Positions 4,991 to 13,419 of a stretch of 33,276 nt of DNA are shown piece by piece. The stretch comes from Candidatus Latescibacterota bacterium. GTDB taxonomy: Bacteria > Latescibacterota > UBA2968 > GCA-2709665. The stretch's first letter is position 1, and the number at the start of each line of letters is the position of its first letter. The notes below the pieces were generated by a model. The model ran no database searches, was not told the origin of the DNA, and saw only the letters and a program-made list of their open reading frames with translations. Made by a program: the position numbers and the translations under genes. The stretch is from NCBI GenBank assembly GCA_963662665.2, contig CAXXJS010000045.1, positions 1-33,276 on the forward strand, given 5' to 3'.

Positions 4991-6028
4991 ATGTTATTCA
5001 GCGGATGTTACACGGCCCTCATTACACCCCTGGACCCGGACAAGGGCGTGGACGAACCCGGGCTGGAAAAACTGGTCGATTTCCAGGTCTCACAGGGCGT
5101 AAGCGGCGTCCTCGCCGTGGGCACGACCGGTGAGAGTCCCACCCTGAACGGCAAAGAACACAATAGCGTGACGGAACGGGTCTGCGCCCTGGCCAGAGGG
5201 AATTGCCGCGCTATTGCCGGCACCGGCGGGAATTCAACCGAGGAAACCCTGCGCGCTACCGAACACGCCGCGCACGCGGGAGCCGATACCGCCCTTCTTG
5301 TGGACCCCTACTACAACGGCCCCAGTTCACTTGAGATTCGACGCGAATACGTCGCGCCCGTTGCCGAGGCCTTTCCGGAACTCGAAATGGTCTCCTACGT
5401 GATTCCGGGCCGCTCGGGAACGAAACTGCTCCCCGAAGATCTGGCCATTCTGCACCGGGACTACGGGAACGTCAACGCCGTCAAAGAAGCCACGGGCGAC
5501 CTGGACAATATGGCCCGGACGCGTGAAGTCTGCGGGGACGATTTCTACGTCCTTTCCGGTGACGACGACGTCACCTACGACATGATGACAGACCCCCGAA
5601 TCAGGGCGACCGGCGTTATCTCAGTAATGTCCAACGTGGTCCCCGGCCCCATTCAGGGTTTCACGCAAGCGATCCTCGATAACGATATGGTTGAGGCAGA
5701 TCGCCTGGCCGAAGCGCTCAAGCCGCTTTTTGGAATGGTCACCATTCTGTCCGAAGAACACACTCCCTTCGGAACGACACAGGTCAAGGCCCGCAATCCC
5801 GTGCCAATCAAGACATTGATGAATATTCTCGGCATGCCGGCCGGTCCGCGCCGACGGCCGCTGGGAAGGATGAATCAGAGCGGCCTGAAACAGGTCCTTG
5901 AAATCGCACGAACCGTGCAGAATGACAACCCGGAACTCTTTGCTCCAATCGAGCAATTCTTCAACGTCGACATAACAAACCGTGTCACCGGCGCCTCAAT
6001 TCCGGAGGGCCTGGCGTACGTAGACTGA
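4991..6028 (+). CDS. dapA: 4-hydroxy-tetrahydrodipicolinate synthase
   Basis: TALITP, GTTGESPTL, PYY, Y..PGRSG, Schiff-base Lys in AVKEATG, SGDD, ISV and NPVPIK. RBS GGAGG; lysine riboswitch upstream. Confidence 0.92.
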   Translation: MLFSGCYTALITPLDPDKGVDEPGLEKLVDFQVSQGVSGVLAVGTTGESPTLNGKEHNSVTERVCALARGNCRAIAGTGGNSTEETLRATEHAAHAGADTALLVDPYYNGPSSLEIRREYVAPVAEAFPELEMVSYVIPGRSGTKLLPEDLAILHRDYGNVNAVKEATGDLDNMARTREVCGDDFYVLSGDDDVTYDMMTDPRIRATGVISVMSNVVPGPIQGFTQAILDNDMVEADRLAEALKPLFGMVTILSEEHTPFGTTQVKARNPVPIKTLMNILGMPAGPRRRPLGRMNQSGLKQVLEIARTVQNDNPELFAPIEQFFNVDITNRVTGASIPEGLAYVD

Positions 6029-6108: not shown

Positions 6109-7902
6109 ATGGGAACGACAAGAACCACGAATCGCAAACTGTTGAACTGGGTCAACGAAGCCTCGAAACTCTGTCAACCCGATAACGTCCACTGGAGCGA
6201 CGGTACCGCGGAAGAGTACGATCGGCTTGCCGAATTGCTCTGTCGTGCCGGCACCTTTGTGCGACTGGACCCGGAAAGGCGTCCTAACAGTTTTCTTGCC
6301 CGGTCGGATGCCGGCGACGTTGCCCGCGTGGAAGACCGCACATACATATGCACAACGGATGAAGGGGACGTGGGACCCACCAACAACTGGCGAGAGCCCG
6401 TTGAGATGAAAGGCGTTCTCGAGGGACTGTTCGCAGGTTCGATGCGCGGCCGGACGATGTACGTCATCCCGTTTTCCATGGGCCCCATCGGTTCGTCGAA
6501 TTCCAAGATCGGCGTGGAGATCTCGGACTCGCCGTACGTGGTGTGCAGTATGTACATCATGACCCGAACGGGCGACGCCGTGCTGGACGCCCTGGGCGAC
6601 GGCGACTTCCTTCCCTGCATGCATTCCGTAGGCGCCCCGCTCGAGCCGGGGCAGAAAGACGTCTCCTGGCCTTGCGACGCGGATCGGAAATATATCGTAC
6701 ACTTTCCCGATGAGCCCTCCATCTGGTCCTACGGCTCCGGGTACGGCGGAAACGCCCTTCTTGGCAAAAAATGTTTCGCCCTCCGCATCGCGTCGACCAT
6801 GGCGCGTGACGAGGGCTGGATGGCCGAGCACATGCTCATTCTGGGCCTCACGTCACCCGGGAACAGAAAACATTACGTTGGCGCCGCCTTTCCGTCCGCG
6901 TGCGGCAAGACGAACCTGGCCATGCTGCAGCCAACGGTTCCCGGCTGGAAAGCCAATTGCGTTGGCGACGATATCGCGTGGATGCGCCAGGGGCCCGACG
7001 GCAGGCTCCACGCGATCAACCCGGAAGCCGGATTCTTCGGCGTCGCCCCCGGCACCAGCCTGAAATCCAATGGTCACGCCATGGCCGCCCTTGAAAAGAA
7101 CGCCATCTTCACGAACACGGCGCTAACCCCTGAAGGCGACGTCTGGTGGGAAGAGATGACAGACGATCCACCGCCTCAGCTGGAAGATTGGCTCAAGCGT
7201 GTCTGGACCCCGGCGGCGGAAGGCACGGCCTCCAATCCAAACGCCAGATACACGGCCCCCGCCGCTCAGTGCCCCGTGATCGACCCCGAGTGGGAAAATC
7301 CCGATGGCGTCCCCATGTCCGCTTTTATTTTTGGCGGCCGCCGTTCATCGGTCGTCCCACTGGTTTTCGAAGCGACAGACTGGCGACACGGCGTCTTCCT
7401 GGGTTCCATCATGGCCTCCGAAACCACGGCCGCCGCCGCCGGCGCCGTGGGAAAACTTCGACGAGATCCCTTTGCGATGCTTCCATTTTGCGGCTATAAT
7501 ATGGGCGACTATTTCAAACACTGGTTCGAAATGGGCGCCAGGCTGGGCGACAACGCGCCCAGAATCTTCTACGTGAACTGGTTCCGCAAAGACGCGGAGG
7601 GGAATTGGCTCTGGCCCGGTTTCGGCGAGAACAGCCGTGTGCTCAAGTGGATCTGTGAACGTATAGACGGTACGGCGGACGCCGTGGAAACCCCGATTGG
7701 CTACGTACCCACGCCGGAAGCCCTGGACCTCAGCGGCCTGGACGTCCCGAAAGCCGACGTTGAGGAACTGCTTTGCGTGGATTCGGATGCCTGGCGCGCC
7801 GAACTGCCCGAAATCCGCGAGTTCTACGCCGGCTTCGGAGACCGGCTGCCTGCGGTCCTGTCGACCGAACTCAACGCCCTCGAGGAACGGCTGAGCGCTT
7901 GA
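6109..7902 (+). CDS. pckG: Phosphoenolpyruvate carboxykinase (GTP)
   Basis: [40 protein letters not shown]-loop [37 protein letters not shown] and NWFRK. Confidence 0.96.
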
Positions 7903-7992
7903 CGGCACGTTGAAAATGTCCATCCGGACCGGTGGCGGACGTCCCTGCCCGGTGCGTCTTTCCCGCTCGGGCAATTCTACCGGAGAAACACC

Positions 7993-8799
7993 ATGACAAA
8001 GCTTGTAATCTGCGGCATCGCGGGCAAGATGTGCGGCCGTATCGCGCACCTGGCTATGGAAACCGACGATTTGAAGATCGCGGGCGGCGTGGAAGCGCCT
8101 GGTAATCCGTGCATCGGCCGGGATATCGGCGACGTTGTGGGGACCGCGCGGGCCGGTTTTGCAGTTGTCGACAACCTGGAATCCGTCATAGAAAACGCCG
8201 ACGTGGTCGTTGCCTTCACCGCGCCCCCCGACGGAACGCTCGACGCCGCACGGACCGCCGGCGAAGCCGGAAGGCCAATGGTAGTTGGCACCACAGGCAT
8301 GTCCGCCAGCCAGCTTGCGGATTTTCAGAATGCGCTCAGGGACGTCGCCTGCGTCTTTGCGCCCAGCTTCAGCATAGGCGTGACCGTACTCACCAAACTG
8401 GTCGAAGACGCCGCGCGCATGATGGGTAGCGGTTACGACGTGGAAATTGTGGAGGCACACCACCATTTCAAAACCGACGCGCCCAGCGGCACCGCCCTGG
8501 CGCTGGCCAATGCCGCTGCAACGGGCCTGGATCGAAACCTGGAGGATGTAGCGCTATTCGGCCGACAGGGAGAAACAGGCGCCCGCACCAGCGAGGAAAT
8601 CGGCATCCACGCCATCCGCGCGGGAGACCTCGCGGGAGAACATACGGTCATCTTTGGCGGCACCGGCGAACTCTTCCAGCTCGTCCACCGTGCGCAGTCC
8701 CGGGATTCCTACGGCGTGGGCGTGCTGCAGGCCATCCGTTACGTAGTAAACGCGCCCCCCGGACTATTCAACATGAGGGACGTGCTTGGCATTGAATGA
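7993..8799 (+). CDS. dapB: 4-hydroxy-tetrahydrodipicolinate reductase
   Basis: G.AGKM Rossmann start, VGTTG, substrate loop EAHHHFKTDAPSGTA and GEHTVIF. Confidence 0.94.
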   Translation: MTKLVICGIAGKMCGRIAHLAMETDDLKIAGGVEAPGNPCIGRDIGDVVGTARAGFAVVDNLESVIENADVVVAFTAPPDGTLDAARTAGEAGRPMVVGTTGMSASQLADFQNALRDVACVFAPSFSIGVTVLTKLVEDAARMMGSGYDVEIVEAHHHFKTDAPSGTALALANAAATGLDRNLEDVALFGRQGETGARTSEEIGIHAIRAGDLAGEHTVIFGGTGELFQLVHRAQSRDSYGVGVLQAIRYVVNAPPGLFNMRDVLGIE

Positions 8800-8902: not shown

Positions 8903-10843
8903 ATGGCAATCGACATCTCCGCAGCAGTGGAAGCGATCGGAAACGGGCAGACGCTCGCCGCGGCGGACCAGGTACTTATCGACCCGCAGCCCGGTACGCT
9001 GACCACCCGCGTAGACGAACTCCTGTCCGCTATCCTGAATAACGATTGCTCCGCCGCCGACGTCTGCAGCACCCTGATTCGCCTGGGCATGAACTTCGTG
9101 GGTAGAGACGCCGAAATCGTCGGATACAGCGCGGAAGAAGCCGGCTGCGCGCTCGGTCAGGTCCTGGCCGCGATCGATGATCTCGAGGGGGCCGTAATGG
9201 CGGGCGTCGTGGCCGACTTCCTTGAGGACATGAAGTCCGTGAACATGAGCGACAGCCTTTCCGGCCTTCTCGCCGAACGCATCGAATCGGACCTGAACCA
9301 GGCAGAACCGGGCCGTTCTTTTCTAACGCTGCTCAAACGGGAGATGCGCAGCGGCGTCTACTGGAAAATGATCGGCGAAGACTACTGCAAGTTCGGTAAC
9401 GATTTCGCCCGCGGCCTGGAATACCTTCGCCATTACGGGTACTGCCAGGTGTCAACCAACCCCGTATTGGCGGCCAAGGCATTTGACGAAGACGATTCGC
9501 TCGCCGAGCAACTCAAGCGTGAAATCGGGAAACACGACAATTGGAAGCGGGATCCGGAGGCGCACGCCGACGAAATCGCCATGGCGGCCACCCTCATCGC
9601 CCTTTGGCCGAACCTGTCCATTTTCCGGCCGCTCGCGGTGCATACGGATCTCAAAGACTATATGGTCAGCTTCCAGCTCAATCCCAACATTGCCGACCGG
9701 GCCGATGCGAGCATCGAAGATGCGCGAAATGCATACGGTCTGGCCGCCGACTTCCTTAAAGAATACGACCGGCTGCTGGGCCTGGGTGACCGTTCCGGCC
9801 GGGTCAACCCGAACATCGTCTTCAAGGTCGCCGCCAGTCACGAGGCCGCCCGCAAGATTACCACAACGCTCAACAGCAGTGCCATTGGCTCCAACAATAC
9901 GGTGGTGTACACCGTGGCCCAGGAGGTTCAGCTGATACTGGATGCGTTCGAGGGTAAGGCCCGGGCCGCGAACGCCGGCGGACAGGTCGTACGCACCTAC
10001 GAAACCAACATGGGCGGCCGGTTCGTGAGTCACCTTCGGGAGGTCGAAGCCGAGAAGATCTTCCTGGACGCTGCGGCAAAGGCCGGCGACGGCAAGGCGA
10101 ACGAACTCATCGACGCGCTGGCCGTCGATCTGGGTGCGGGGGATGCGGCCAAGGGAACTCTTGCCGACAGGGCCCGGGCGGTCTGCGCCTACAAGAACCT
10201 CAAAACCCTGGATCACCCGATCGTCCTCGAGGCCGCCGAAGCCGCCGGGCAGTCCGTGGATGCCATCCTGCTTCTTGAGGAAGACTTGAAAAAGGCGGGC
10301 ACCCTGGTCGCCCGCCGCGTCTACTGGGTTTTCTTCAGCCCCCATAACCGGCCCAGGTGGGTCGCCCATCTTCGGAAGACCTATGGCGTTACGGACGCCC
10401 AGGCACGCTGGATCGTGGACTCAATGGACGTACTTCCCGCCTCCAAACGGATTCCGGAAGACTCCTTCCACACGCTGGGCGCGTCCAACATGTGCAATAC
10501 CGAGTTTCCGAACCATGCGCGCGCCGTCCAGACCGCCTCCGAAGCGGACGGCTTTAACCTCGAAGACTTCAGGGACGCGGTCCTGGATGCCTACGAACCC
10601 GGCGTGGACCAGCGCCTGCGCGAACTGCCCGATTTCTGCCGTGGATACGACCTGACACCCTCCCTGAAAGACTTCCTGCAGAACGTCGTCGGCATCGACG
10701 TCGCCGGCTGGCAGACCCGGGGCATGGAACCCTGCGAGTGGCCCGGCTTCGGATCCGTGCAGAAAACCAGCGCCGAATTCCAGGAAGCCTACGACACCTT
10801 TGCCGCCAACTGCGTCGCCATCGCCAAAGAGGTTGCGGGTTAA
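8903..10843 (+). CDS. Large transaldolase/FSA-superfamily (class I aldolase fold) protein with an N-terminal extension; function uncertain
   Basis: GND (D167), STNP, Schiff-base Lys in NIVFKVAAS (K308) and NNTVVYT..Q match transaldolase-family signatures. At 646 aa it is about twice the usual length. RBS GGGAGG. Confidence 0.7.
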   Translation: MAIDISAAVEAIGNGQTLAAADQVLIDPQPGTLTTRVDELLSAILNNDCSAADVCSTLIRLGMNFVGRDAEIVGYSAEEAGCALGQVLAAIDDLEGAVMAGVVADFLEDMKSVNMSDSLSGLLAERIESDLNQAEPGRSFLTLLKREMRSGVYWKMIGEDYCKFGNDFARGLEYLRHYGYCQVSTNPVLAAKAFDEDDSLAEQLKREIGKHDNWKRDPEAHADEIAMAATLIALWPNLSIFRPLAVHTDLKDYMVSFQLNPNIADRADASIEDARNAYGLAADFLKEYDRLLGLGDRSGRVNPNIVFKVAASHEAARKITTTLNSSAIGSNNTVVYTVAQEVQLILDAFEGKARAANAGGQVVRTYETNMGGRFVSHLREVEAEKIFLDAAAKAGDGKANELIDALAVDLGAGDAAKGTLADRARAVCAYKNLKTLDHPIVLEAAEAAGQSVDAILLLEEDLKKAGTLVARRVYWVFFSPHNRPRWVAHLRKTYGVTDAQARWIVDSMDVLPASKRIPEDSFHTLGASNMCNTEFPNHARAVQTASEADGFNLEDFRDAVLDAYEPGVDQRLRELPDFCRGYDLTPSLKDFLQNVVGIDVAGWQTRGMEPCEWPGFGSVQKTSAEFQEAYDTFAANCVAIAKEVAG

Positions 10844-11050: not shown

Positions 11051-12295
11051 ATGAAAACGCCGTCAATGCCAGATCTGAATGAATGGATCCGGGAACTCGA
11101 CCGGACCGTTGATGGGTTTCAGGACCGCATGGTGCAGACCAGGCGGCATCTCCATACCCATCCCGAAGTGAGCGGCGAGGAAACGGAAACCACCCGGTAT
11201 TTGCGGGAACAACTACTGACCGACGGTTTCCGGGTCCGCACCGGCCCCACCGGCCGCGGGGTGATCGCGGAATCCGCCGCGAACGGATCCGGCCCCAGAA
11301 TCGCCATCAGGGCCGATCTGGACGCGCTACCCATCCAGGATGCCAAATCCGTGGATTATCGCAGCAACGTGCCGGGGGTGATGCACGCGTGCGGCCACGA
11401 CGCCCATACCGCCACGGTGCTGGGCGCCGCTCTGGCGCTGGCTTCCGCCGGAAAATCCGGAATATTGCCCTGGCCCGTTTCCTGGCGGGCTGTTTTTCAG
11501 CCCGCGGAAGAGACCAACCAGGGCGCGCTGGAGATGATTGAAGCCGGGGCGCTTGAAGGCGTTGGCGCAATGTTGGCCCTTCACGTGGATCCGTCGCGCC
11601 CTGCCGGATGCGTTGGGCATCGATCCGGTGTACTGACCGCACATTGCGACGAAATGCACGTACTCGTCCGCGGCAGCGGCGGTCATGCGGCTCGACCCTA
11701 CGAATCCCGGGACCCCATTGCCGCGGCGGCCCAGTTGATCAACGCTTTCTACGTGACGTTGCCGCGGGCTCTCGATCCGCAGCATACCGTGGTCCTTACC
11801 ATCGGTTCCGTGGCTGCCGGAAAGCGATATAACGCCATTCCGGATCGCGCGGTACTCAAGGGCACCGTACGCAGCCTGAACGCCGATGCCCGCCGCCTGG
11901 CCCTTGACCGCGTTCGGGAAATCGCTCAGGGTATTGCGCGGACGTCACGCACGGAAATCGAAGTGACGTTCAATTCGGGACCCCCTTCTGTCCTGAACGA
12001 CCCGGAACTGAACGAACTGATCCGGCAGTGCGCGACCGACCTGCTCGGGACCGACCATGTACAGTACATCGGGAAGCCCAGCATGGGCGGCGATGACTTC
12101 GCCCATTATCTGCAGCACGTTCCAGGCAGTCTGTTTCGCCTTGGATGCTCGGCTCCCGGGTCGACCGGCCCAGGCCTGCATTCGCCGGATTTCGACATCG
12201 ACGAACGCGCGCTGGGCATCGGCGCAAAAATCCTGGCGCGAGCCGTCGTACGCTGGTCGGAACCGAAAACACACGAACATGAGGCCAATCAATGA
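11051..12295 (+). CDS. M20D family amidohydrolase (HipO/YxeP-like)
   Basis: RRHLH.HPE.S.EE, RADLDALPI, MHACGHDAH, FQPAEE, GGHAARP and LHSPDFDIDE. Confidence 0.9.
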   Translation: MKTPSMPDLNEWIRELDRTVDGFQDRMVQTRRHLHTHPEVSGEETETTRYLREQLLTDGFRVRTGPTGRGVIAESAANGSGPRIAIRADLDALPIQDAKSVDYRSNVPGVMHACGHDAHTATVLGAALALASAGKSGILPWPVSWRAVFQPAEETNQGALEMIEAGALEGVGAMLALHVDPSRPAGCVGHRSGVLTAHCDEMHVLVRGSGGHAARPYESRDPIAAAAQLINAFYVTLPRALDPQHTVVLTIGSVAAGKRYNAIPDRAVLKGTVRSLNADARRLALDRVREIAQGIARTSRTEIEVTFNSGPPSVLNDPELNELIRQCATDLLGTDHVQYIGKPSMGGDDFAHYLQHVPGSLFRLGCSAPGSTGPGLHSPDFDIDERALGIGAKILARAVVRWSEPKTHEHEANQ

Positions 12296-13419
12296 GCCAG
12301 ATGGTGTTCAACCCCAGCCGAAGACCCACGGTGGGGGTGGAAGTCGAACTGGCGCTGGTGGATAGTAAGACCATGGGCCTGTGCAGCGCCAGCCAGAGGC
12401 TTCTTACCCGAGTGCCTCCACAGCTGGAGGGGACGATCAAGCCGGAACTGATGCAGTGTTACGTGGAAATCAACTCAGGTGTCTGCACGACGCTGCAGGA
12501 AGTGGAAGCGGACCTCAAGGTAAAGCTGTGCGCGCTGGAAGCGCTTGCGGATCGGGAGGGCGTGCGGCTCTATTGGTCGGCAACCCATCCGTTTTCCACC
12601 TGGCGAGACCAGGAAATCACCCCGAACAAACGCTACGCCGGCCTGGTGGACCTGCTTCAGGACACGGCCCGCCAACTGGTCACCTTCGGCCTGCACGTGC
12701 ACGTAGGCGTGGACAGCGGCGATAAAGCGGTGATGATTTGCGAGTTTATCCTGCGACACATACCGCTCCTGCTGGCGTTAAGCTGCAACAGTCCGTTCTG
12801 GGAAGGCCGGAACACGGGTGTCTGCTCCTGGCGGTCCAAGATCATGGACGGCCTGCCCACCGCCGGTCTGCCGCCGCTGATGCGGAACTGGAGTGAATAC
12901 GTCTGGCTGGTGAATCACCTCGTGGAGACGGGCTACATCGAGACCATACGGGAAATCTGGTGGGACGTTCGCCCCCACAACAAATTCGGCACGGTCGAGA
13001 TCCGTGTCTGCGATATTCCCGGGAATTTTCACGATACTCTGGGCCTTGTCGCGCTGATGCAGTCCCTCGTCAAATACCTTTCCGACCATATCGACCGCGG
13101 TATCTACCAGCACGACTGCCACCCGATGCTCATACGCCAGAACAAGTGGCGCGCGGCCCGTTACGGCCTCGATGCCCAGCTTGTCGACGCCGACACCTAC
13201 CAGCTTCGGCCGGCACGTGAACTCGTAAGGCGCCTTGTCGATCAATTAAAGCCAACCGCACACGACCTGGACTGCGTTCCCTACCTGGAGAGGAATCTGG
13301 ACCTGGCGTCCAGGCCGACCTGGGCGCAGCGTCAGGTGGACATCCTCAACAAAACGGGAGATGCCCCGTCTGTCGTTCGGGAGTTGACCTCCGCCTCCCG
13401 CTTCACGCCGCCAGCCTGA
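12292..13419 (+). CDS. ybdK: YbdK-family carboxylate-amine ligase (glutamate--cysteine ligase family 2)
   Basis: TVGVEVE, PEL...VEI, ATHPF, FGLHVHVG, ALS.NSPFW.G, WWDVRP..GTVEIRVCD and NKWRAARYG. ATGA overlap with the amidohydrolase stop codon. Confidence 0.88.
   Translation: MSQMVFNPSRRPTVGVEVELALVDSKTMGLCSASQRLLTRVPPQLEGTIKPELMQCYVEINSGVCTTLQEVEADLKVKLCALEALADREGVRLYWSATHPFSTWRDQEITPNKRYAGLVDLLQDTARQLVTFGLHVHVGVDSGDKAVMICEFILRHIPLLLALSCNSPFWEGRNTGVCSWRSKIMDGLPTAGLPPLMRNWSEYVWLVNHLVETGYIETIREIWWDVRPHNKFGTVEIRVCDIPGNFHDTLGLVALMQSLVKYLSDHIDRGIYQHDCHPMLIRQNKWRAARYGLDAQLVDADTYQLRPARELVRRLVDQLKPTAHDLDCVPYLERNLDLASRPTWAQRQVDILNKTGDAPSVVRELTSASRFTPPA

Follow-up and report, generated by a model that had tools for sequence, protein, structure and literature searches.

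A transaldolase-fold protein family with a glutamine and methionine active-site signature and a possible role in the cleavage of six-carbon keto acids

Locus and gene product

The stretch of DNA analysed here, referred to as the window, comprises 33,276 nucleotides of contig CAXXJS010000045.1 from Candidatus Latescibacterota bacterium (assembly GCA_963662665.2). On its forward strand it carries an intact open reading frame (ORF) of 646 codons, here named T (8903..10843), which begins with ATG and is preceded on the 5' side by AAAGGGAGG. The deduced protein belongs to the transaldolase fold but departs at two catalytic positions from both transaldolases and fructose-6-phosphate aldolases (FSA), and the genes that accompany its relatives suggest six-carbon keto acids as possible substrates. 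dapA, a gene for GTP-dependent phosphoenolpyruvate (PEP) carboxykinase and dapB are all located 5' of T on the same strand (Table 1). A scan for promoters and terminators around T gave no usable signal, the terminator-like sites occurring at chance level (8 versus 8.3 expected).

Table 1. Position of T, its domains and active-site codons, and flanking genes within the window
Feature	Position	Strand	Basis
T, transaldolase-fold protein	8903..10843	+	ORF; Pfam PF00923; AlphaFold2 model; VIA superposition (values in text)
N-terminal all-helical domain, ~residues 1-150, missing from solved transaldolases	8903..9355	+	DSSP helices 5-149; VIA alignments start at 146-151
Barrel strands 1-6 with active-site motifs, ~residues 152-373	9356..10021	+	DSSP and alignments to TalB and N. 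gonorrhoeae transaldolase (NgTAL)
D167 codon (= TalB Asp17)	9401..9403	+	hhalign; >=90% conserved in A1
Q258 codon, site of catalytic Glu (TalB E96, NgTAL E93, FSA Q59)	9674..9676	+	profile/hhalign; >=90% conserved in A1
K308 codon, Schiff-base lysine (TalB K132)	9824..9826	+	profile/hhalign; >=90% conserved in A1, P0139 sole exception
M370 codon, site of TalB F178 / FSA Y131	10010..10012	+	hhalign and motif comparison; >=90% conserved in A1
R373 codon (= TalB R181, anion-binding Arg)	10019..10021	+	permissive hhalign
Helical insert of ~130 residues (~374-505) between strands 6 and 7	10022..10417	+	helices H371-506; aligned residues spread over 151-638
Strands 7-8 and C-terminal barrel helices, ~residues 506-646, with LPAS514-K515-R516 and T533-E534-F-P	10418..10843	+	strands E508-512, E530-534
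dapA (context)	4991..6028	+	Pfam DHDPS; TIGR00674, 215.8 vs cut-off 206.15
GTP-dependent PEP carboxykinase (context)	6109..7902	+	Pfam PEPCK_N, PEPCK_GTP
dapB, genome's sole copy (context)	7993..8799	+	Pfam DapB_N, DapB_C; single tblastn match
M20 amidohydrolase, 3' of T	11051-12295	+	TIGR01891, 350.6 bits
YbdK-type carboxylate-amine ligase, 3' of the M20 gene	12292-13419	+	

Predicted fold and closest structural relatives

TAL_FSA (PF00923) was the sole Pfam family matched by T (40.3 bits, cut-off 27), and the match was limited to residues 173-344, corresponding to positions 13-148 of the 285 in the profile and thus to its first half. The transaldolase models of NCBIfam, with PRK03343 and tal_mycobact as the best matches, all scored far below their cut-offs (27.6 vs 367, 21 vs 233.75 and 15.1 vs 344 bits), and no NCBIfam model specific to the T family was found. 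Searching the PDB with the single sequence returned nothing relevant (sole match RecN, E 0.95), and the ESM Atlas yielded uncharacterised TAL_FSA clusters only.

An AlphaFold2 model of T was built from an alignment of 22 diverse family members (A1) and reached a predicted local distance difference test score (pLDDT) of 94.9 and a predicted template modelling score (pTM) of 0.93. In Foldseek, transaldolases ranked at the top, the enzyme of N. gonorrhoeae with E 6e-9 and a template modelling score of 0.70 normalised by target length. VIA-align superposed the model, over its span 151-638, on the N. gonorrhoeae chain 7oey_A with Z 34.4 and a root-mean-square deviation of 2.6 Å for 332 of 350 residues; Z was 33 for the C. 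glutamicum enzyme, about 29 for E. coli TalB and 17-19 for short transaldolases and FSA. Based on these superpositions, the modelled T is a complete eight-stranded transaldolase barrel of the long (subfamily-2-like) kind to which two helical parts have been added. The first six strands of the model span residues 163-166, 182-185, 254-258, 305-310, 329-335 and 365-369. The first-pass annotation of this DNA, made from the sequence by eye, had noted an N-terminal extension and extra sequence in the C-terminal half, and these can now be described as the helical domain of about 150 residues and the helical insert at about 374-505; the superposition on TalB and FSA that it had proposed (Z about 29 and, for FsaA, 17.4) speaks for the transaldolase fold. 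The insert after strand 6 is largely missing from one family member, P0115.

The best structural matches were the subfamily-2-type transaldolases of N. gonorrhoeae (3clm/7oey) and C. glutamicum (3r5e), with Z 33-34.4 and deviations of 2.5-2.6 Å over 332-339 residues. They share with T the motifs VSxxxxP, (I/F)KVxA and NxT of strands 3 to 5, whereas T shows 18-20% identity to them, carries Gln for Glu and Met for Phe, and has in addition the 150-aa N-terminal domain and the 130-aa insert. The top-ranked structural chain was the E93Q variant of the N. gonorrhoeae enzyme. E. coli FsaA (1l6w; Z 17.4) has the same fold, the strand-3 Gln, the Schiff-base Lys and an anion site of the ASFK type in common with T, but it possesses Tyr131 in place of Met370 and, with 220 aa, no extra domains. 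Among the structure matches were also the TalB variants E96Q and E96Q/F178Y (4rz5, 4rz6); their engineered Glu-to-Gln exchange is natural in T, which lacks the compensating Tyr of the double variant. TalB E96Q has reportedly lost activity. As judged from the entry titles, sulfofructose transaldolase (BmSF-TAL, 8bc3; Z 18.8) combines the transaldolase fold with a non-phosphate anion on the donor ketose and provides a precedent for an exchange of the anion; unlike T, it is a short, decameric form, and its anion is a sulfonate and not a carboxylate.

Active-site residues

The first-pass annotation had read the catalytic Asp, STNP, the Schiff-base Lys and the N.T motif of T as intact and had placed Gln and Met at the two catalytic sites. 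In T, the motifs occur as D167 in FGND, S184-T-N186-P, Q258 in VSFQL, K308 in FKV, N331/T333 and M370 in TNMGGR, and the equivalences were borne out by profile alignment and hhalign. In a comparison of the family profile with the PDB, 'VSfQLnP' aligned with 'VSLEVSP' of the N. gonorrhoeae enzyme, equating Q258 with Glu93, and hhalign against TalB paired Q258 with E96, K308 with K132, N186 with N35 and N331/T333 with N154/T156. This default alignment ended before strand 6; a permissive run, which reached strand 6 but not strands 7-8 past the insert, also paired D167 with D17, T368 with S176, M370 with F178 and R373 with R181 (probability 87%, with low per-column confidence around strand 6). At the strand-6 site, TalB reads ISPFVGR, FsaA APYVNR, the genome's own short transaldolase ISPFLGR and T ETNMGGR. 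Further downstream, the comparison was made by motif and by eye: LPAS514-K-R516 of T resembles the anion-binding ASFR/ASFK, with S514 and R516 as candidate counterparts of S226 and R228 of TalB (ASKR vs ASFR), and T533-E534-F-P resembles the strand-8 TIAP/TLP of TalB and FsaA.

The superfamily set consisting of the Schiff-base Lys (strand 4), Asp (strand 1), Asn (strand 2) and Asn/Thr (strand 5) is wholly kept. The classical transaldolase signature is absent, as Q258 replaces Glu and M370, which is still hydrophobic, replaces Phe. The FSA signature is present by half, with Gln as in Q59 (FAQV in FsaA) but Met instead of Tyr131, and the statement that T displays neither the Glu plus Phe nor the Gln plus Tyr pair has thus proved correct. 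Q258 and M370 were conserved in at least 90% of the 22 diverse family members; at the equivalent positions of the 10 most divergent members, the Gln was invariant and the Met at least 90% conserved. Since both residues are conserved in the diverse as well as in the divergent set, the Gln plus Met signature is a family trait and not a chance substitution. E534, the last residue of strand 8, was invariant in 22/22 sequences, as were A513 and S514; family-specific invariant residues in A1 were E534, H377, R379, E380 and K163, and Y366 was near-invariant. Judged by their conservation, E534, Y366 (strand 6, two residues before T368) and H377 could be candidate acid/base residues.

That T is merely the dead remnant of a transaldolase, serving in structure or regulation and no longer in catalysis, appears hardly credible. 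Although both canonical acid/base residues are missing and a divergent relative, P0139, has lost the lysine as well, the active-site Lys, Asp, Asn, Thr and Arg are at least 90% conserved across bacterial and archaeal phyla, with 59-90% identity among the best 120 relatives, and T is coupled in operons with metabolic enzymes. P0139 (626 aa) itself reads AFGFA where the others read VFKVA, carries Arg in place of the Gln and lacks TNMGGR, and is probably such an inactive relic.

Distribution of the family

A word-indexed search identified 929 relatives of T at E <= 0.001, of which the best 120 were 553-694 aa long, 59-90% identical and labelled 'hypothetical protein', 'transaldolase' or 'transaldolase family protein'. 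An exhaustive search of representatives at 50% identity gave 105 matches. Many were fragments, and some were forms of about 720 aa with an identity of 37-43%. In a collection with one genome per species (185,579 genomes), 255 stretches encode a relative of T. The best 80 of these 255 carried the labels of metagenome-assembled genomes (MAGs) from bacteria (Latescibacterota, Gemmatimonadota, Poribacteria, Armatimonadota, Acidobacteriota, Methylomirabilota, Chloroflexota, Aerophobetes, Syntrophaceae and Clostridia) and archaea (Bathyarchaeia, Nitrososphaerota, Thermofilaceae, Brockarchaeota and Hadarchaeota). A metagenome scan seeded with divergent members confirmed at least 469 relatives among at least 596 stretches.

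A rarer sister family of about 355-475 aa (P0191, P0201, P0211, P0212, P0216, P0220 and P0224), which served as outgroup in the tree described below, also has the Gln plus Met signature (SFQLNP/SLQLSP and T(N/Q/E)M(D/N)GR), often with Asp or Asn right after the Met and with Val or Ile at the site of E534; some of its members are named 'transaldolase' by their sources. In addition, two giant proteins, P0205 (2953 aa) and P0210 (4369 aa), match residues ~162-289 of T (strands 1-3) at ~2360-2540 (E 1.6e-6 and 1.6e-5), which looks like a transaldolase-like segment within very large proteins.

Gene neighbourhoods of T relatives

Genomic context was analysed in 160 loci (numbered L) from the genome and metagenome collections, for which ORFs were called and clustered by blastp and one representative of each recurrent cluster was annotated. 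A T ORF was called in 154 of these loci (L018, L041, L042, L050, L104 and L140 were dropped), and the window, L001 and L002 were excluded from the counts. In the 117 loci without dapA or dapB, genes of inositol and uronate metabolism recurred beside T (Table 2). At least one of the seven marker families was present in 55/117 loci, and UxaE or IolB was directly adjacent to T in 25/117. After dereplication of T at 90% identity, 21 of 98 clusters had UxaE, nine had IolB and 48 had any marker. Pairs of UxaE and T occurred in both gene orders, with start and stop overlapping by 4 bases in L047 and L069 (gap -3) and abutting in L075 and L121 (gap +1).

Table 2. Marker gene families near T in the 117 loci without dapA or dapB
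Family	Loci	Directly adjacent to T	Basis
UxaE	22	17	Pfam PF16257, up to 569 bits
IolB / 5-deoxy-glucuronate isomerase	10	8, all downstream and co-directional	KduI/IolB family; TIGR04378, 234 vs 205 bits
AP_endonuc_2 barrels	29	12	some above IolO (5-keto-L-gluconate epimerase) cut-off, 375 vs 300
Glyoxylate/hydroxypyruvate reductase	13	0	NF009714, 613 vs 455 bits
IolG-like	12	3	
IolM-like	11	1	up to 587 vs 450 bits
IolN-like	7	3	up to 520 vs 245 bits

The names of the inositol and uronate enzymes (IolG, IolM, IolN, IolO and the UxaE route) follow the NCBIfam models and an excerpt of PMC3750489. The inositol route of the Thermotoga type is reflected in the NCBIfam model names IolG, IolM (scyllo-inosose 3-dehydrogenase), IolN (3-dehydro-scyllo-inosose hydrolase) and IolO (5-keto-L-gluconate epimerase). 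In L109, T ends a co-directional operon, IolM-IolG-IolN-MFS-IolO-T, in which all four Iol genes scored above equivalog cut-offs. In L166 and L162, IolM, IolG, UxaE, IolO-like barrels, GDPD and a glyoxylate reductase surround T, with an IolN-like gene also in L166. LarA-like racemases, aldehyde:ferredoxin oxidoreductase and GDPD were less frequent neighbours, and no sugar kinase was found among the annotated recurrent neighbour clusters. In the tree, rows linked to UxaE were scattered, requiring 17 changes for 18 rows and clustering no more than shuffled labels. Five genomes with a UxaE-T pair, for which completeness is not given, contained UxuA in 0/5 cases and lacked altronate dehydratase in 4/5.

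Some loci showed further arrangements. In the archaeal-type loci L152, L153, L163, L168, L172, L174, L175 and L180, T is immediately preceded by an alpha/beta hydrolase gene of the same orientation, whose Pfam matches include the dienelactone-hydrolase, S9 and S33 families and whose product could be a sugar-acid lactonase. In L174, this gene (7195-7995) overlaps the start of T (7992), and in L172, L174, L175 and L180, IolB follows directly downstream of T. L160, L161 and L165 have, upstream of T, an AP_endonuc_2 barrel and a homologue of the LarA-family nickel-pincer racemases/epimerases that scores 406 bits, less than the lactate racemase cut-off of 460; L160 also has UxaE downstream of T. 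Three Bathyarchaeia loci (L051, L052 and L054) carry myo-inositol-1-phosphate synthase directly upstream of T, a gene of the MttB methyltransferase family further upstream, and cyclophilin-like and DUF4432 proteins after T.

Proposed activity on six-carbon keto acids

In the Thermotoga-type route, the action of IolO leads to D-tagaturonate, from which D-fructuronate is formed by the epimerase UxaE. The Bacillus-type route proceeds through 2-deoxy-5-keto-D-gluconate, the product of IolB, which is phosphorylated by IolC and then cleaved by the class II aldolase IolJ. Given this pathway order, each of the three partners UxaE, IolO and IolB produces a six-carbon 5-keto acid or converts one into another. 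By our own stereochemical reasoning, D-fructuronate, 5-keto-D-gluconate and 2-deoxy-5-keto-D-gluconate share the D-threo configuration at C3/C4 with fructose 6-phosphate. This is the configuration cleaved by transaldolases and FSA, and the keto acids bear a carboxylate where fructose 6-phosphate bears its phosphate.

We therefore tentatively propose that T is a class-I Schiff-base aldolase or transaldolase acting on unphosphorylated six-carbon 5-keto acids, a reading to which we give a little less than an even chance for the window protein and a better one for the family as a whole. As we infer it with regard to substrate class, products, residue roles and the choice between transfer and release, the reaction would proceed as follows. 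The donor would be a 2-keto-hexuronate, that is, D-fructuronate or possibly D-tagaturonate or 5-keto-gluconate, or else 2-deoxy-5-keto-D-gluconate. K308 would form an imine at the keto carbon while D167 assists with the C4 hydroxyl, and R373, S514 and R516, the apparent counterparts of the phosphate holders in transaldolases, would hold the substrate carboxylate. Cleavage of the C3-C4 bond would leave the dihydroxyacetone unit on the lysine and release a three-carbon acid-aldehyde, tartronate semialdehyde from fructuronate and malonate semialdehyde from the 2-deoxy acid. The dihydroxyacetone unit would more likely be handed to an acceptor aldehyde, as in a transaldolase, than be released, because the Met at the Phe/Tyr site is non-protic and because the window's own genome has no match to DhaK or DhaL but does have a homologue of tartronate semialdehyde reductase. 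As a speculation, the loss of the Glu may be offset by the substrate carboxylate or by E534. The glyoxylate/hydroxypyruvate reductases, the IolO- and hydroxypyruvate-isomerase-like barrels and the aldehyde oxidoreductases among the neighbours fit a processing of C3 acid-aldehydes.

The place proposed for T is held in known pathways by IolJ (5-dehydro-2-deoxyphosphogluconate aldolase), which acts after IolB, and by the UxuB/UxuA/KdgK/KdgA route for UxaE-made fructuronate, in the order given above. IolJ is a metal-dependent class II aldolase on a phosphorylated substrate, whereas T matches TAL_FSA only and has no kinase recurring beside it. Literature searches returned no paper on the T family, on a fructuronate aldolase or transaldolase, or on a non-phosphorylative 2-deoxy-5-keto-gluconate aldolase. 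T is best filed as a variant within the transaldolase/FSA fold, the proposed function being undescribed as far as these searches show.

A more specific and bolder version of the proposal, which we consider unlikely as it stands, is that T founds a new branch of non-phosphorylative uronate transaldolases. Such an enzyme would transfer the dihydroxyacetone unit from D-fructuronate or 2-deoxy-5-keto-gluconate to glyceraldehyde 3-phosphate, yielding fructose 6-phosphate together with tartronate or malonate semialdehyde, would make up for the lost Glu by the substrate carboxylate or E534, and would be a core activity in the window's order. If so, a single reaction would stand in for four or five steps of the classical pathways for inositol and hexuronates, and in the window's order it would represent a core, constitutively needed activity fed by an unrecognised route.

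A further explanation is that T uses its Schiff-base lysine not for an aldol or transaldol reaction but for other chemistry on a keto acid from these pathways, for instance an isomerisation or epimerisation, a dehydration or a retro-Claisen-type cleavage. The loss of the two known acid/base residues across the family would be accounted for in this way, and the explanation agrees with the keto-acid epimerases and isomerases among the neighbours and with the additional family-specific invariants E534, H377, R379, E380 and K163. However, the residues that position dihydroxyacetone (D167, N186, N331 and T333) are all kept, and no precedent in this fold occurred among the structure matches listed, making this chemistry quite improbable.

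If the cleavage of keto acids by T is confirmed, the degradation of inositol and uronic acids would no longer lack its final step in many uncultured archaea (with the labels Bathyarchaeia, Thermoproteota and Hadarchaeota) and bacteria (Acidobacteriota, Chloroflexota, Latescibacterota and others), and six-carbon sugar acids would reach C3 units by a shortcut that needs no kinase. Such a finding would further mean that a transaldolase active site works with neither of the known acid/base solutions, and it would correct the blanket annotation of the family as 'transaldolase' or 'hypothetical protein'. As transaldolase and FSA are widely engineered for carbon-carbon bond formation, a natural variant that accepts a carboxylate would be of practical interest.

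Linkage to dapA and dapB

dapA and/or dapB accompanied T in 37/154 loci, whose MAGs all bear the label Latescibacterota, Gemmatimonadota/-etes or 'uncultured bacterium'. A FastTree tree was calculated from 86 T sequences (dereplicated at 80% identity, ORFs below 560 aa removed) and four outgroup sequences of the sister family. Here, the dap-linked rows and the window formed a single clade of 7 rows (support 92), which was nested together with rows from Acidobacteriota, Armatimonadota and Poribacteria in a 13-row clade (support 99). L046 and L047 from Acidobacteriota (~60% identity to the window protein), the outgroups closest to the window's clade, are linked to UxaE. The catalytic motifs of T and the branch lengths within the window's clade were unremarkable. 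By tblastn, dapB of the window is the single copy of the genome, and dapA scores above its equivalog cut-off, indicating that the two are housekeeping lysine genes.

From the position after dapAB, the first-pass annotation had suggested an amino-aldehyde substrate such as aspartate semialdehyde, by analogy with archaeal ADH synthase. dapA, the PEP carboxykinase gene pckG where present, dapB and T are indeed co-directional, the gap before T is 103 bases with no terminator-like site called in it, and the arrangement is conserved in the 37 loci. But the linkage is limited to one clade and is missing from the remaining 117 loci, among them every archaeal one, dapB as a single genomic copy has a housekeeping role, and a gene found in just 255 stretches from 185,579 species genomes is far too patchy for a step of amino-acid biosynthesis. 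We therefore regard a function tied to dapA and dapB as very unlikely. Of the broader idea of a new aldolase or transaldolase chemistry or substrate, a different substrate or chemistry remains likely, since T is a second paralogue beside a normal Glu plus Phe transaldolase in the same genome, while the amino-aldehyde substrate does not.

An insertion of the PEP carboxykinase gene between dapA and dapB is shared by the window with roughly a dozen close relatives. In most other loci among L003-L049, dapA adjoins dapB, usually with a gene for an Ldh_2-family dehydrogenase ahead of the pair.

Evidence from the window's genome and order

The window's genome (92% complete, 66 contigs) contains a second TAL_FSA gene at C41:24070-24699 (207 bits), in which SAEV and SPFLGR provide the Glu and Phe of a normal transaldolase. 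A role of T as the housekeeping transaldolase, or as a stand-in for a missing one, was rejected on this ground.

A number of observations weigh against an activity of T on keto acids, in particular in the window's clade. With respect to the neighbourhoods, 62 of the 117 loci without dap genes had no marker gene at all (their flanks are shorter, with a median of 6 versus 9 neighbour ORFs), and the cluster labels behind the counts rest on one annotated representative each. In L046, a KDPG/KHG aldolase gene adjoins T, so the classical route can coexist with T, and in four loci (L063-L065 and L068) T is adjoined by a gene for fructose bisphosphatase (FBPase). None of the 37 dap loci carried a sugar-acid marker gene. 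In the window's order, T was present in 39/41 genomes as a single copy among housekeeping genes, and UxaE and KduI/IolB were each found in 0/41 genomes, several of which are single contigs; T there looks more like part of central metabolism than of an accessory sugar-acid pathway. In the window's own genome, no UxaE, UxaC or KduI/IolB was found, the IolN-like and IolO-like matches were far below their cut-offs (87 vs 245 and 118 vs 300 bits), and a search for a coherent route to a 5-keto-hexonate found none. Finally, the anion site formed by R373, S514 and R516 seems to match the site at which transaldolases bind phosphate, which leaves room for a sugar phosphate. For the window's clade, either the substrate arises from an unrecognised route, or a related donor is used, possibly a sugar phosphate in view of this shared triad.

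An alternative explanation is that T is a sugar-phosphate transaldolase or aldolase paralogue of central carbon metabolism, acting on fructose 6-phosphate, sedoheptulose 7-phosphate, tagatose 6-phosphate or a similar compound, with the acid/base function moved, e.g., to E534 or Y366. It is consistent with the full transaldolase fold and the phosphate-type triad, with the invariance of E534 (22/22) at the C-terminal end of strand 8, with the core, single-copy occurrence in the order, with the location near PEP carboxykinase, dapA and dapB in the window and beside FBPase in the four loci named above, and with the finding that T was the sole TAL_FSA match in 3/5 genomes checked. We nevertheless hold it to be rather unlikely: the window's genome already possesses a normal Glu plus Phe transaldolase, the recurrent neighbours handle unphosphorylated inositol and uronate intermediates with no sugar kinase recurring, and T falls far below every NCBIfam transaldolase cut-off (27.6 vs 367 bits for the best). 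The proposed activity on unphosphorylated keto acids is retained as the best explanation for T.

Further observations on the window's genome

Searching the window's genome by tblastn with E. coli Hyi, GlxK, DhaK, DhaL, GntP and IdnK gave no matches; the homologue of tartronate semialdehyde reductase showed 46% identity. Oxidoreductase families for sugars and inositol have many paralogues in this genome, with 54 tblastn matches to an IolG-type GFO/IDH/MocA protein, 10 to the Ldh_2 family and 6 to the DapA family. The IolN model gave 9 matches of the creatininase family, none of which reached its cut-off. A LarA homologue is encoded at C58:18646-19881, and UxuA-like genes are present at 38% identity. 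An island at C10:186-206 kb, with mannitol-dehydrogenase-family, DegT aminotransferase, PhyH dioxygenase and creatininase-family genes among housekeeping genes, was considered as a route to the substrate and rejected, as it showed no clear link to T. The only 2 of the 41 genomes of the order without T, G016 and G020, belong to one genus (g3) and are each about 97% complete.

On the 3' side of T, the ORFs for the M20 amidohydrolase and the YbdK-type ligase share 4 bases, which suggests translational coupling, and the M20 neighbour cluster was confined to 10 related loci.

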